Origin: a virus
IMG/VR virus record: IMGVR_UViG_3300026097_001223
Span: 64,001-128,000 of that record
Direction: 5' to 3' (one strand)
Length of the DNA stretch: 64,000 nucleotides
Of the stretch, positions 920-52,070 are shown piece by piece. The notes below the pieces were generated by a model that was given only the letters and a program-made list of their open reading frames with translations, was not told where the DNA came from and did not search any database. A program made the position numbers and the translations under genes. The first letter of the stretch is position 1, and each line of letters starts with the position of its first letter.

Positions 920-1744
920 TTTTTCAACTACCTGTTTGATTTGATCTTTTGTAATGTTGTTATTAAATGTTTGTTGATTGAAATTTGTTACAAAGTTTAT
1001 CCAGTTAGCTATTAGCTGATCGTCATTGTCTAAATTTAAAACGTCGAGTATCTGTTCGGCACCGCTGGGTTCAGCTAAGACATTGTAGTCTATAGACAGA
1101 GATTGAAAAACAGAGCAGTCATAAAAATCCTGTAGATCACGAGTTTGCTCTAACTTAGTGAAAGAATAGTTTGCAAATTTTTGTGGTAAATGACAAAAAG
1201 AGTCATACAAAAAATCTGTGATTGAATCAATATCGAACTGTGGTTTGAATACAAGCATTTTAAAAATGTCAGTTGCATTGAAACTTTTGATAATTTTTTT
1301 TGCCTGTGCAAGATGTCCAAATTTTGATGCTATAAATTTTTCTGCATTAGGATTATAATTGCGTGTCCCATAGTCAGCTGTTAACGTATCATTGAAAGCA
1401 TTGTTTGGTAAACCAAAGTATGCCCAGTTATTAACCGTATCATTGATATCATTATTCCAGTTACTGTTAATATTTGGCACACATTGCGGATGATTAAGTA
1501 GAATTTGCAGTGCATGTTTCAGTCGTGCACTGCCATTTGGAGCTATTAATAAAATATGAGTGTGCCATTTTTGATTGTCAAATGCATCATAAAAATAATC
1601 GTAAGTGGGACAGGATGGATCTATCGGAAGAGTTCTCATTACATTAGTTATCTTTTGTATAAAAAGGTTGACCTTTCTGACTAGATCGGCTATACTAATA
1701 ATATAGACAGTGAGGAGAGAACAATGAAAGTTGAAGTTGGGCAA
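902..1744 (-). CDS. Hypothetical protein (weak P-loop/sulfotransferase-like); true start probably downstream of 1744
   Basis: Long AT-rich ORF filling the gap between + strand genes. The start is probably near MRTLP, because the annotated 5' end overlaps the divergent promoter. Confidence 0.5.
   Translation of the reverse strand: MPNFNFHCSLLTVYIISIADLVRKVNLFIQKITNVMRTLPIDPSCPTYDYFYDAFDNQKWHTHILLIAPNGSARLKHALQILLNHPQCVPNINSNWNNDINDTVNNWAYFGLPNNAFNDTLTADYGTRNYNPNAEKFIASKFGHLAQAKKIIKSFNATDIFKMLVFKPQFDIDSITDFLYDSFCHLPQKFANYSFTKLEQTRDLQDFYDCSVFQSLSIDYNVLAEPSGAEQILDVLNLDNDDQLIANWINFVTNFNQQTFNNNITKDQIKQVVEKLMTDY
1668..1696 (+). promoter_or_regulatory. sigma70-type early promoter
   Basis: TTGACC-N17-TATACT, preceded by AAAAAGG and followed by AATAAT. 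SD GAGGAG lies before ATG 1724. Confidence 0.85.
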
Positions 1745-1942
1745 AAGATTTACGGGCAGTACGGTGCAATGATTCCAACAGTGTATGGTGTTGTTGATCG
1801 CATTGACGACAACGGTGTTGTTTACTTTAGTGATCGTTATTCACCTGAAGAAGTTTACACAACACCACAGGAATACATCAAGCCTATCAAAGGCAATGCC
1901 AGTATTGAAGAACTTCCACTTGCAGTAGGAGTATATGCATGA
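1724..1942 (+). CDS. Small early hypothetical protein
   Basis: 72 aa, strong SD, follows the early promoter. Confidence 0.75.
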   Translation: MKVEVGQKIYGQYGAMIPTVYGVVDRIDDNGVVYFSDRYSPEEVYTTPQEYIKPIKGNASIEELPLAVGVYA

Positions 1943-2160
1943 AAACAGTAAAGACAGTGTTTAGCGAATTGCTAGCACAAGGCACCGAGTGTGGCGTATG
2001 GACTGACAAAACGCAGATTGATTTGGAATCCATGTTACACGATTTTGAAACTGCTGAACGCAACATGCAAAATGTATTACCATACATGAAACGCCTATGC
2101 GAAGCAAAAGAAAGTTCAACCAAACTCAAGCGTTTACGTGAAAGGGCGTTGGCATTATGA
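1939..2160 (+). CDS. Small early hypothetical protein
   Basis: 73 aa, ATGA overlap with the upstream gene, SD AGGAG. Confidence 0.7.
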   Translation: MKTVKTVFSELLAQGTECGVWTDKTQIDLESMLHDFETAERNMQNVLPYMKRLCEAKESSTKLKRLRERALAL

Positions 2161-2645
2161 AAATTTATTTCAACAATCTCAGTCAGTACGCTGTGCAAAA
2201 GAATCAAGTGCAAGGGGTGCTGGAGTATTGTGCCAGTCAACTGTTGGACAAAGATCTTTACAATGCATTGGTGCTAGACATCAACGTAGAACGAGACTTT
2301 GGTTACGATGCAGAAGCAGGTGTGCATGACGATGAGTGGGACGATGTTGCGCCTTGCTTGTTTGCAATCACACTGGACCGGACGCTGGTAGAAGGCGATA
2401 TGGAGACACTGCTGAAAACACTGTGTCATGAAATGGTTCATATCAAGCAGTACATGACCGGTGAGCTCCGAGCAACAGCCAATAGCTTTGAATACAAAGG
2501 CACAGAATACAGCCTAGAGCAACCTGTGTCGCTTGCTGAGTATTATGCTTTTCCGTGGGAAGTAGAAGCCTACGGATTGGAACGTGCATTGTATTTCGGT
2601 TACACTGAAAATGCAAATGTTCTTGACAAACTATTGGCAGCCTAG
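2157..2645 (+). CDS. Zincin-like metallopeptidase
   Basis: HEMVH (HExxH) motif plus downstream PWEVEAY. ATGA overlap. Confidence 0.75.
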   Translation: MKIYFNNLSQYAVQKNQVQGVLEYCASQLLDKDLYNALVLDINVERDFGYDAEAGVHDDEWDDVAPCLFAITLDRTLVEGDMETLLKTLCHEMVHIKQYMTGELRATANSFEYKGTEYSLEQPVSLAEYYAFPWEVEAYGLERALYFGYTENANVLDKLLAA

Positions 2646-2651
2646 TATTAT
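2623..2651 (+). promoter_or_regulatory. sigma70-type early promoter
   Basis: TTGACA-N17-TATTAT upstream of ATG 2684. Confidence 0.75.
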
Positions 2652-2683
2652 AATAGAACAGTAAACAAAAGAGAGCTAGACAT

Positions 2684-3697
2684 ATGAATACTGTACTAAT
2701 TAAACAAGGTGTGTATCGCAACACCGAAATCGAAAACCAGGTGTTTGAGCTGGTACGCCCAGTTACACGCGGTAAAAAAGGCACCTACATCACAGTGCGG
2801 AACGACGGTTCTTTTGACGGTCCGGATAATATTCGAGTAAGTATTGATAATCACAACAGTGTAGAGTTTGCTGGAGGCGCTGTGAAAAACGGAGTTGTAG
2901 AATTTAAGAAAACCAAAACCGAAAGTGACGAAGAAGTCATGGAGCGTATTGGCAAACGTTTTGATATTTTGCACGACATGACGCGAGCTGCTATCAACGG
3001 CGATGTCCGTGCTATGATTGTTACAGGTCCTCCAGGTGTAGGTAAGAGCTTTGGTGTAGAATATGAGCTTGAAAAAAGCAGTATCTTTGATCGCATCGGC
3101 GGCAACAACACCAAGTACGAAGTGATTAAAGGCGCAATGACACCTGTAGGTTTGTATGCCACACTGTACAAGCATTCAGACAAAAATCATGTGCTGGTGT
3201 TTGATGACTGTGACTCAATCCTGCTAGACGATTTGAGTTTGAACATTCTCAAAGCCGCACTGGATTCAGGCAAGAAGCGTAGAATCTACTGGAATGCAGA
3301 TTCAAGCAAACTGCGCGGAGAAGGTATTCCTAACAGTTTTGACTTCCACGGCAGTGTGATTTTTATTACGAACCTAAAGTTCGAACATATCAAGAGCAAA
3401 AAACTTAAAGATCACCTAGATGCATTGCAGAGTCGCTGTCACTATCTTGACTTAACAATGGATACCATGCGAGATTGTTTCTTGCGTATTAAACAGATCT
3501 TCCGTAAAGGTGAGCTGTTTCGAGATTACAAGTTCACTCCAGAAGTGGGCGAAGAGATTCTTGACTTTATGGATAAGAATCAAAACAGGTTGCGCGAGAT
3601 GAGTTTGCGAATGGCACTTAAAATTGCTGATCTCACTCGTGTTTCATCCGACAACTGGCGAGAGCTTGCCGAAAGCACTTGTATGCGTCGGGTTTAA
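2684..3697 (+). CDS. AAA+/P-loop ATPase
   Basis: Walker A GPPGVGKS, Walker B VLVFDDCD, sensor FITN, arginine-finger-like ALQSRC. Confidence 0.85.
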   Translation: MNTVLIKQGVYRNTEIENQVFELVRPVTRGKKGTYITVRNDGSFDGPDNIRVSIDNHNSVEFAGGAVKNGVVEFKKTKTESDEEVMERIGKRFDILHDMTRAAINGDVRAMIVTGPPGVGKSFGVEYELEKSSIFDRIGGNNTKYEVIKGAMTPVGLYATLYKHSDKNHVLVFDDCDSILLDDLSLNILKAALDSGKKRRIYWNADSSKLRGEGIPNSFDFHGSVIFITNLKFEHIKSKKLKDHLDALQSRCHYLDLTMDTMRDCFLRIKQIFRKGELFRDYKFTPEVGEEILDFMDKNQNRLREMSLRMALKIADLTRVSSDNWRELAESTCMRRV

Positions 3698-3702
3698 AGA
3701 GT

Positions 3703-3777
3703 TCAGGTTATCACTCACTGTCTAGCTCCTCGATAACCTGATCAATTAGGGCACCCTTTCGGGGGTGCCCATTTTTT
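3703..3777 (+). ncRNA. Candidate 3'UTR-derived antisense sRNA (hairpin with anti-leader loop plus terminator)
   Basis: Perfect 10-bp stem TCAGGTTATC/GATAACCTGA. The 19-nt loop ACTCACTGTCTAGCTCCTC is complementary to early-gene leaders at 1704-1714, 2673-2682 and 45419-45431. Confidence 0.5.
3749..3777 (+). terminator. Rho-independent terminator
   Basis: GGGCACCC-T-TTCG-G-GGGTGCCC followed by A and T6. Confidence 0.85.
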
Positions 3778-4661
3778 CTATTATGATTGTAAAAATATAT
3801 TTAGGACACAACTCACAGGACAGCGAACTGGTTTTACAATACCAGGTGCATGATACACCACTGGCTCGTGCATGGACAGAAAGACTAACAGCCGGCATGA
3901 GCTATCCAATTGACCATCCAGAAAGATTTTATGGGTGGAACAGCAAAGAACACGAATTAGACAATGCCACTGGGCAATTGTTACATGCTGTTAACACTGT
4001 GAATAGTCACAAAAAGATATTCTCAGACCCAGTGTCAGCCACAGACCAAGACTGGTTAAACAGTGTGCACACTGTGTTCGAAGATGTGCACGGCGGACTT
4101 GACCAGCAGGACACAGAATTTTTTCAAACTGCACCTGCAGAAGTGCAACGTGCGCTAGCCAATGTTAATGTGTATGTGCATGCTGTAGAAACTGCCGTGT
4201 CTGAGAAGTCAAATCCACGCTTTGTGGTAACACGCTGGGGCTTGCCCAAAACACATCTATTAGAAAAACAATGGATGAGTCAGTACGGTGTTGTTTCTCC
4301 ACCGTGGGGTAGCCTGGTGTTAAGCTATGTTGAAATTGGAAAGACCTTGGAAGATCTAGTGCATGATAACGAAGCACCCAGTGATCTAGGATTTAGACCT
4401 TGGAAACACTACAGTGCTGACTTTGTTGCTCGATTCTACGAAGAAGAAGACACTGTTAAAAAACTAAATCAAATGCGCTATGTGTTTGAATGGCATCGAG
4501 ACTGGTTTGAAGCCAGAGGCTTTGATCAGTTCGAAGATCCGCAACTGTTGCCCTTGCGATATCCTGTGGCACAGTTAATTGAAGAAATGCCCAGAGAAGA
4601 TCTCATTTACCATATTGGTAGGCATAATAGAGTAAAGCAAGTACAATTAATCCATGCGTGA
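3765..4661 (+). CDS. Hypothetical protein; start probably the ATG near 3783
   Basis: 298-aa ORF overlapping the uvsW start. The listed 5' end overlaps the terminator. Confidence 0.65.
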   Translation: MPIFSIMIVKIYLGHNSQDSELVLQYQVHDTPLARAWTERLTAGMSYPIDHPERFYGWNSKEHELDNATGQLLHAVNTVNSHKKIFSDPVSATDQDWLNSVHTVFEDVHGGLDQQDTEFFQTAPAEVQRALANVNVYVHAVETAVSEKSNPRFVVTRWGLPKTHLLEKQWMSQYGVVSPPWGSLVLSYVEIGKTLEDLVHDNEAPSDLGFRPWKHYSADFVARFYEEEDTVKKLNQMRYVFEWHRDWFEARGFDQFEDPQLLPLRYPVAQLIEEMPREDLIYHIGRHNRVKQVQLIHA

Positions 4662-45089: not shown

Positions 45090-45117
45090 TGCAACTTAAA
45101 CATTAAAGGAGAACCAC

Positions 45118-45354
45118 ATGTTTGATTTTGAAAAAGCCCGTGAAATGATGAATGTAGATCAATACACAAAAACAGTTAACACAGCGGTAGATACTGCCAT
45201 TGACCAGATGGAAGCATCTAGCAATGCATTTGCCGGATACATCACCGACAACAAAGCCAAAAGCTTTTTTGAAGCAGTCACTGAAGCACAGTATTCAACT
45301 GTACGCACTGCTATCAGCAACTATCGTTTGGCTGTAAAGTCAATTTCCATCTAA
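45118..45354 (+). CDS. Small helical protein, possibly phasin-like
   Basis: 78 aa, amphipathic helices, strong SD. Confidence 0.5.
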   Translation: MFDFEKAREMMNVDQYTKTVNTAVDTAIDQMEASSNAFAGYITDNKAKSFFEAVTEAQYSTVRTAISNYRLAVKSISI

Positions 45355-45371
45355 CCTTTACAAATAAAAGG

Positions 45372-45400
45372 TTGACAATGTTGTCAGTCTCCTTTATTAT
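45372..45400 (+). promoter_or_regulatory. sigma70-type early promoter
   Basis: AAAAGG-TTGACA-N17-TATTAT-AATAAT. Inverted repeat TGACAA-TG-TTGTCA over the -35. Confidence 0.8.
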
Positions 45401-45431
45401 AATAATATAACGTGTTAAAGGAGACTAGACA

Positions 45432-45722
45432 ATGAATTCACGTGTTAAAGCCGCAGTTGATGCAATCAACGCACTTGAAAACTTTAATGAGTTACGTAAC
45501 ATATATACAGCAGTTCGTCAAAAAGAAACCCGCCTGAGCCGCAACAATATTCGCAGCATTGTAAAAGGTTCTGATGTTGAATTTACAGCCCGCAATGGCA
45601 CTGTTGTACGTGGCGTTGTAACCAAAGTAAATCGTAAAACTGTTGAAGTAGTTCAAGCAGGTGCTACACCTTTCGGTCGCACAACCTACAAGGTTCCTGC
45701 TAGTATGTTAACTGTAGTTTAA
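45432..45722 (+). CDS. Early hypothetical protein (SH3-like C-terminus)
   Basis: 96 aa, SD AAAGGAG. Confidence 0.7.
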   Translation: MNSRVKAAVDAINALENFNELRNIYTAVRQKETRLSRNNIRSIVKGSDVEFTARNGTVVRGVVTKVNRKTVEVVQAGATPFGRTTYKVPASMLTVV

Positions 45723-51704: not shown

Positions 51705-51817
51705 TGTGTAGAATCCTTTGTGGTTGTCTTTTAGACAGTGCTATTTATTGCAGTGCAACAATAATACTAAACTTTCGTAGAAAAAACAAATTTTTCTATA
51801 TCTTTTAGAAAAAAAGG

Positions 51818-51846
51818 TTGACCATACTGTGCATCGACCGTATACT
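51818..51846 (+). promoter_or_regulatory. sigma70-type early promoter
   Basis: AAAAAAAGG-TTGACC-N17-TATACT-AATAAT, the same layout as 1668. Confidence 0.85.
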
Positions 51847-51872
51847 AATAATGTGAGTTAAGGAGAAAGGCA

Positions 51873-52070
51873 ATGAGTGACAAAATTGAAATTTTAAAAG
51901 AGGTCACACCCGGCCTTCCGCAAAACGTATACTATGTTCAGGGCACAAGTCTTGTTGCTTTCTACCCTGAGGGCGACAAAGATGCGTTTCGTATCTATAA
52001 AACACCGCTGAAGCATTTTTCCAAGCGGTACCGCAAATTTGAAACAATTGCAAAGGTGAATGCACTATGA
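51873..52070 (+). CDS. Small early hypothetical protein
   Basis: 65 aa, SD AAGGAG. Confidence 0.7.
   Translation: MSDKIEILKEVTPGLPQNVYYVQGTSLVAFYPEGDKDAFRIYKTPLKHFSKRYRKFETIAKVNAL

Follow-up and report, generated by a model that had tools for sequence, protein, structure and literature searches.

In this environmental virus, the transcript of an AAA+ ATPase gene is predicted to end in a hairpin whose loop is complementary to the RBS of the same gene. We consider it probable that this anti-RBS is a built-in RNA brake on ATPase translation, which would work by pairing of the 5′ and 3′ UTRs in cis, by an sRNA released from the 3′UTR, or by both. The stretch of DNA that was analysed (the window, 64,000 nt) comprises bases 64001–128000 of a 182-kb IMG/VR viral contig, which corresponds to about half of a jumbo phage. 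Complete genomes of relatives measure 317–337 kb, and a Megablast search with the region returned no GenBank phage match. Metagenome runs from salterns, the sea and estuaries contained strains that are approximately 94–99% identical across most of window positions 1600–3900. Four of the DNA runs yielded contig fragments of close marine and saltern strains only, and no RNA run was listed among the public runs with the sequence.

The ATPase unit lies on the plus strand and begins with a sigma-70-type promoter at 2623–2651 (TTGACA, 17 nt, TATTAT; 11 of 12 consensus positions matched), which is equivalently placed in nearly all related loci. The leader with the RBS follows at 2670–2683, and its core at 2673–2682 (GAGCTAGACA) is the target of the 3′UTR loop. 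The gene itself (2684–3697) encodes 337 aa with a match to phrog_1250 (E 2e-86) and a weak match to AAA_16, and its Atlas neighbours are viral AAA clusters; judged by its sequence, the product is a viral AAA+ protein. A search of the ATPase sequence against the PDB gave no match, and the AlphaFold model, built on an alignment of 15 sequences, was poor (pLDDT 57). An intrinsic terminator was located at 3749–3776 on the plus strand by a terminator scan and by local folding; it has a 9-bp GC-rich stem (7 of 9 pairs G–C), a 4-nt loop and a following ATTTTTT, and the stem covaries among relatives. Since the gene has its own promoter at 2623 and the terminator ends at 3776, the unit is predicted to yield a monocistronic mRNA of approximately 1.12 kb. 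The predicted promoter and terminator flank both pairing partners, and the layout in the relatives is alike. Because the neighbouring genes vary, the unit of promoter, RBS, ORF, anti-RBS and terminator behaves as a self-contained cassette.

The next gene downstream (3783–4661) has its ATG 7 nt past the T-run of the terminator (window 3777–3790) and possesses neither an SD nor a promoter, so that it would be expressible only via terminator read-through and SD-independent initiation. The same kind of layout was seen in two relatives, L002 and L214. A promoter of its own, joined to the T-run (TTTTTTTGAC), precedes the downstream gene in most relatives.

The original prediction described a perfect 10-bp hairpin with a 19-nt loop and a subsequent terminator 3′ of the ATPase gene, and direct reading of the sequence confirmed it. 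The hairpin occupies 3703–3741 on the plus strand, with arms at 3703–3712 and 3732–3741 and the loop at 3713–3731. It begins five bases past the ATPase stop codon and is present in the local MFE fold as well as in the centroid fold, and the fold of 3690–3800 has a z of −3.35 versus shuffles. Within the loop, the anti-RBS (3719–3728, plus strand) is, as had been stated, the exact 10-nt complement of 2673–2682, directly 5′ of the ATPase ATG, and a core that is invariant in the family, TAGCTCC, lies at 3723–3729. The resulting duplexes are short (8–10 bp), and their GGAG/CUCC part is trivially expected from any CU-rich sequence. Rfam 15 contained no family for the element; its sole match was sbrA at 17.7 bits (gathering score 45, E 0.76), which overlaps the terminator. 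A scan of viral contigs with a 14-nt pattern returned more than 100 chance matches and re-found only the contig of L002, the pattern being too short.

Read on the opposite strand, the loop could instead be the RBS (GAGGAG-N7-GTG) of a real small ORF, an objection that had been raised together with the prediction. The window does contain a minus-strand ORF of 24 aa that starts 7 nt past GAGGAG. However, among 66 unique loci a start codon was found 3–12 nt past the minus-strand GGAGC in only 20, the ORFs in these loci are of 9–94 aa and unrelated to each other, and the peptides of the window and L002 diverge after 6 residues. This comparison refutes the minus-strand reading, as the ORF is not conserved, and we assign it a negligible probability.

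The pairing of leader and 3′UTR was followed through approximately 240 related loci, which were fetched in three scans and gave 153 unique leader/3′ pairs. In 103 of the 153, the ATPase leader had a perfect complement of at least 8 nt within the first 100 nt past the stop codon. The controls gave 0 (final 100 nt of the CDS), 2 (upstream sequence) and 8 (reversed UTR). The usual pair is AGGAGCUA/UAGCUCCU; most loci have the leader sequence AGGAGCTA a few bases 5′ of the start codon and TAGCTCCT after the stop codon. Imperfect complementarity (6–7 of 8 positions) was found for 33 of 114 distinct leader/UTR combinations. No complement was detected within 90–100 nt in L020, L320, L335, L352–354 and L375–376, nor in the distant homologues of Vibrio phage VAP7 and Cronobacter phage LPCS28.

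In the complete relatives, AGGAGCTA occurs in 6–8 copies per genome when both strands are counted. One copy is the ATPase RBS, the reverse complement of which follows approximately 1,035 nt downstream, while the others lie mostly within coding sequence and 0–2 per genome are located at other RBSs. This 8-mer is not a general RBS. Furthermore, a genome-wide test per gene showed complementarity between a leader and its own 3′ region to be no commoner than in permuted pairs, and it can be concluded that such 5′/3′ complementarity is no general habit of the window's phage. TAGACA was dismissed as a leader motif, since nearly all of its 96 plus-strand copies are codon-driven (Leu/Val/Ile-Asp) within genes.

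Two further leader/3′ matches were noted. A 78-aa gene at 45118 (window 45093–45394) has the leader TAAAGGAGA and a 9-nt complement, TCTCCTTTA, past its stop codon; this complement falls inside the spacer of the next promoter (45372–45400), and chance alone predicts about 1.7 9-mers of this kind for the genome. In Pseudomonas phage PA5oct (NC_071039.1, 248735–249933; L303), a homologue with 41% identity combines the leader AGTAGCAT with ATGCTACT on the 3′ side, and the two form a duplex of 8 nt plus four G–U pairs (z approximately −3.9). A local hairpin contains the 3′ site as its 3′ arm and repeats the leader word GTAGCA in its 5′ arm, and the region is identical in the phages Paride and Cassandra. 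The PA5oct-type pair was set aside as uninformative, because it is part of this hairpin and does not differ among the three genomes that were compared.

The two partners of the pairing covary. Divergent clades keep complementarity via other sequences, namely CGGAGCAA/UUGCUCCG, UAACGGAGUA/UACUCCGUUA, GGAGAGAGA/UCUCUCUCC, TAACGGAGTA/TACTCCGTTA, GGAGAGAGA/TCTCTCTCC, GAGGAGCAAG/CTTGCTCCTC, GGAGGAGCAA/TTGCTCCTCC, AAGGAGCAA/TTGCTCCTT, AGGAGTAA/TTACTCCT and more, and the window itself has GAGCTAGACA/TGTCTAGCTC. One clade carries CGGAGCAA/TTGCTCCG, with two compensatory pair changes that map to a single event on the protein tree. Bulged or two-helix forms of the pairing occur in L312 and L003, and within the window's clade, which includes L214 (92% aa identity) and L002 (87%), the leaders read GAGCTAGACA, GGAGCTAGAC or AGCTAGAC while the loop is unchanged. 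In a matrix of 14 classes, the longest match averaged 8.9 nt to the own UTR versus 6.1 nt to the UTRs of other classes. The own UTR was the best or tied best in 13 of the 14 classes, and the observed sum was reached in 0 of 20,000 permutations (p < 5e-5). The covariation of leader and 3′ motif for which related phages were to be inspected was therefore found, and the partner is the ATPase's own RBS in all clades.

As leader and 3′UTR covary, chance is excluded, and neither an invariant protein site nor a repeat at the DNA level is likely. It might still be argued that the two motifs are conserved separately, for instance as a protein or RNase site by the terminator or as a DNA inverted repeat bounding the cassette, and that their complementarity is incidental. 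The unit is indeed a self-contained cassette amid variable neighbourhoods, and conservation is higher in the UTR motif than in the leader: on the tree, the UTR 8-mer changes 7 times and the leader 8-mer 17 times, and this lower frequency hints at an additional constraint on the UTR motif. However, at least eight covarying classes of different sequence retain complementarity, one arm is always the SD plus spacer, lineage-specific extensions of the duplex run in different directions, and U–G wobbles appear in the AGGAGCTG class and in L386. We regard incidental complementarity as very improbable.

The anti-RBS is displayed in two modes. In the type of the window, the motif resides inside a loop of 17–21 nt on a hairpin of 8–12 bp, and the GTCTAGCTCCT loop is borne by quite different stems in the window, L002, L003, L312, L373 and L384. 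The entire 19-nt loop, including the half beyond the anti-RBS, is identical in the window, L214 and L002, although their stems and flanks vary; in L002, all 19 loop positions are kept and the stem shows a compensatory change of G:C to A:U. In the main type, the motif is unpaired at the 5′ foot of a hairpin, which is followed by an AU-rich spacer and then the terminator. TAGCTCC is unpaired and invariant in 101 unique main-type modules, with compensatory changes in 13 of 16 flanking stem pairs. Whether placed in a large loop or next to a covarying hairpin at its 5′ foot, the motif is single-stranded without exception. A search with a covariance model for the main-type module found exactly one copy per complete genome, and where ORFs are inserted 3′ of the ATPase gene, the module still ends the unit, 109–584 nt past the ATPase stop codon.

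The main-type relatives originate mostly from freshwater lake metagenomes. In alignment A2 (columns 1–12), a TAA, often as GTTAAGTAA, stands almost always 4–6 nt 5′ of TAGCTCC, and it persists even with a hairpin or extra ORFs between the module and the ATPase stop codon. This TAA could be the relic of a stop codon or a processing site.

Folding of the mRNA was in line with masking of the RBS. When the whole predicted mRNA of the window was folded, the RBS was paired with the 3′ motif in the MFE structure as well as in the centroid, and for 9 of 10 diverse loci, full-length folds gave this pairing a probability of approximately 1. The RBS core is computed to be unpaired with a probability of 0.3–0.96 in nascent prefixes versus 0.01–0.19 at full length, and replacement of the anti-RBS in silico reopened the RBS; these 1-kb folds describe equilibrium and ignore ribosomes and kinetics. 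Complementarity, covariation, single-strandedness, a single copy per genome and the place at the end of the unit are features of the sequences themselves; that the two ends pair in vivo, that translation is repressed, and whether this happens in cis or in trans are matters of inference.

The proposed course of events is as follows. The ATPase transcript would have at its end a module with a short, exposed anti-RBS, here in the 19-nt loop and with the family core UAGCUCC, and this anti-RBS would pair with the SD and spacer of the ATPase leader (here GAGCUAGACA, −11 to −2). Once the RBS is masked, translation would be limited or shut off, and decay of the mRNA would probably follow. The pairing is most simply pictured as intramolecular, as in icaR: the RBS would be free while the mRNA is being synthesized and would close after transcription of the 3′UTR. 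If the module were cut off as a 3′UTR fragment, it could act likewise in trans, as do OppZ and CarZ.

A duplex between the mRNA ends might also serve a positive role, by closing the ends against decay that depends on the 5′ end or by returning terminating ribosomes to the start. The hbs mRNA of Bacillus subtilis, whose 5′ and 3′ UTRs pair with each other, is a precedent for the former (PMC5737220), and in many loci the anti-RBS lies 0–5 nt past the stop codon, a position at which it would be opened by ribosomes that finish translation. However, the hbs pairing governs RNase Y access and stability and leaves the SD unmasked, whereas the phage duplex covers the SD itself. The motif lies anywhere between 0 and 584 nt past the stop codon, and in some loci it is displayed in a loop, which also argues against a positive role. 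Finally, synthetic anti-RBS elements of 8 nt placed hundreds of nt downstream in B. subtilis, in the 3′UTR or deep in the CDS, repress in cis and speed decay (PMC12697547). These 8-mers are engineered and natural genes are depleted of them, whereas the phage 8-mer is positively conserved and co-evolves with the RBS. A positive role thus appears improbable to us. Given the mRNA folds and the experimental precedents, self-limitation of ATPase translation is the best reading.

The original prediction went further and held that the 3′UTR RNA shuts off or autoregulates early genes. In the version with an early shut-off in trans, the hairpin and terminator would be freed from the ATPase mRNA, and the loop would pair with the early leaders of the genes at 1724, 45434 and G000:139380 in addition to the ATPase RBS. 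The claimed complementarities were largely reproduced. At the 5′ end of the leader of a 72-aa gene at 1724, positions 1704–1714 (plus strand) are the exact 11-nt complement of loop 3714–3724 and constitute a candidate secondary target in trans; the site is unchanged in L002 and L214 although its flanks vary. A second candidate target is the RBS of the gene at 45434, where 45419–45431 (plus strand) pairs with loop 3719–3730 over 12 bp with one bulged A; the sequences of the relatives do not extend over this site. The pairing claimed for 51853–51865 had to be discarded: the leader has GTGAGT 5′ of AGGAG and the loop has ACTCAC 5′ of CTCCT, and since this order of patches is wrong for simultaneous antiparallel pairing, the duplex is topologically impossible. 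All four leaders do lie downstream of TTGAC...TATAAT/TATACT promoters, as described.

The search for targets covered 381 candidate leaders in the 182-kb contig. Exact loop complements of at least 10 nt were present in three of them (1724, 2684 and G000:139380), compared with a mean of 0.11 for shuffled loops, none of 400 of which reached three. The four best RNAduplex energies of the 381 belong to 45434 (the best, at −20.9 kcal/mol), 2684, 1724 and 139380, three of which have sigma-70 promoters. The suggested comparison with shuffled loops thus yielded enrichment of exact complements, but by RNAduplex energy the enrichment was marginal (p approximately 0.05–0.11). Action in trans would also suit the sRNA-like build of the main-type module (single-stranded seed, hairpin, AU-rich spacer, terminator), the better conservation of the seed than of the leader, and the retention of both the complete 19-nt loop and the 1704 site in the window, L214 and L002. 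However, only these three sequences bear that loop, so its conservation says little. The loss of the 51853 target weighs against the shut-off of several genes, and no internal promoter was found. In complete relatives, the 0–2 further RBS copies of AGGAGCTA per genome are approximately at chance level. The motif covaries in every clade with the ATPase leader and not with other genes, and the extra targets at 1704 and 45419 exist only in the window's small clade.

Occlusion of the SD and autoregulation of the ATPase by a 3′UTR element are strongly supported by the comparative data, whereas a discrete sRNA that acts in trans and the shut-off of several early genes are hypothetical. We consider a freed RNA with this set of early targets rather unlikely; wider targeting of early leaders in trans within the window's clade is possible, with the data pointing to it only faintly. 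A combined scheme may be put forward tentatively, in which a deeply conserved, self-closing early mRNA acts as a per-molecule translation timer in giant phages and, in the marine clade, the loop may have been lengthened such that the freed 3′ fragment additionally silences other early leaders. If true, this marine extension would be an RNA-only counterpart of the protein-based early-gene shut-off of T4.

Some of the leaders inspected here resemble each other or the ATPase leader in other respects. The early leaders at window 51817–51875 and G000:C1:61470–61513 have the cassette TATACTAATAATGTGAGTTAAGGA in common, and TATACTAATAAT is shared with the leader at 1724; from their sequences, these look like duplicated promoter-leader cassettes. 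In two complete relatives, a small gene with a hydrophobic start likewise has the RBS AGGAGCTAG (L210, G002:C1:179877–180004; L201, G001:C1:55021–55148), and in L210 it sits 3′ of a T4-type late promoter, TATAAATA.

Control of a gene from the 3′ end of its own mRNA is known from plasmids and phages. In the hok mRNA, pairing of the 5′ and 3′ ends keeps the molecule inactive until trimming of the 3′ end, and the sib element of lambda is an RNase III hairpin that involves no SD pairing; both are 3′ elements that negatively control an upstream gene. Like the hok fold-back and lambda sib, the phage module is proposed to be a 3′-end element with negative control over the gene upstream. Natural masking of an SD by a 3′UTR is very rare, with icaR and the feedback sRNAs OppZ and CarZ as the cases, and our literature search found no report of it in a DNA phage. 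In icaR of Staphylococcus aureus, an anti-SD motif in the 3′UTR pairs with the SD region of its own mRNA and blocks the initiation complex (PMC3868564). The window's 3′UTR motif likewise matches the SD region of its own gene as an exact complement, over 10 nt. However, icaR is a bacterial gene with a 3′UTR of approximately 390 nt, a UCCCCUG motif and an extended duplex that is cut by RNase III, whereas the present case concerns a phage early gene, a duplex of 8–10 bp with gene-specific spacer bases and a module fused to a terminator, and it is backed by broad covariation instead of experiments.

OppZ and CarZ of Vibrio cholerae are RNAs from the 3′ end of operons that carry the operon's terminator, pair with their own transcript and exert negative feedback (PMC7398697). 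The ATPase module resembles them in its position at the mRNA 3′ end, in the use of the same terminator and in a seed with complementarity to the operon it belongs to. RNase E has been proven to generate OppZ and CarZ, both of which work in trans, and OppZ in addition elicits Rho termination, whereas a processed form of the phage module is hypothetical.

The element would be a phage variant of a rare regulatory principle that is already known, and the comparative support for it is unusually strong. The covariation is such support for a selected, long-range pairing of the two ends of an mRNA, as evolution has in effect repeated the compensatory-mutation experiment many times. The natural variant pairs are ready for reporter tests and may provide a compact set of orthogonal RBS/anti-RBS parts. 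With regards to the phages themselves, the logic of SD masking would be at work in a single early gene across a large family of jumbo phages from the environment, and it would single out the AAA ATPase as being under tight dosage control in them.
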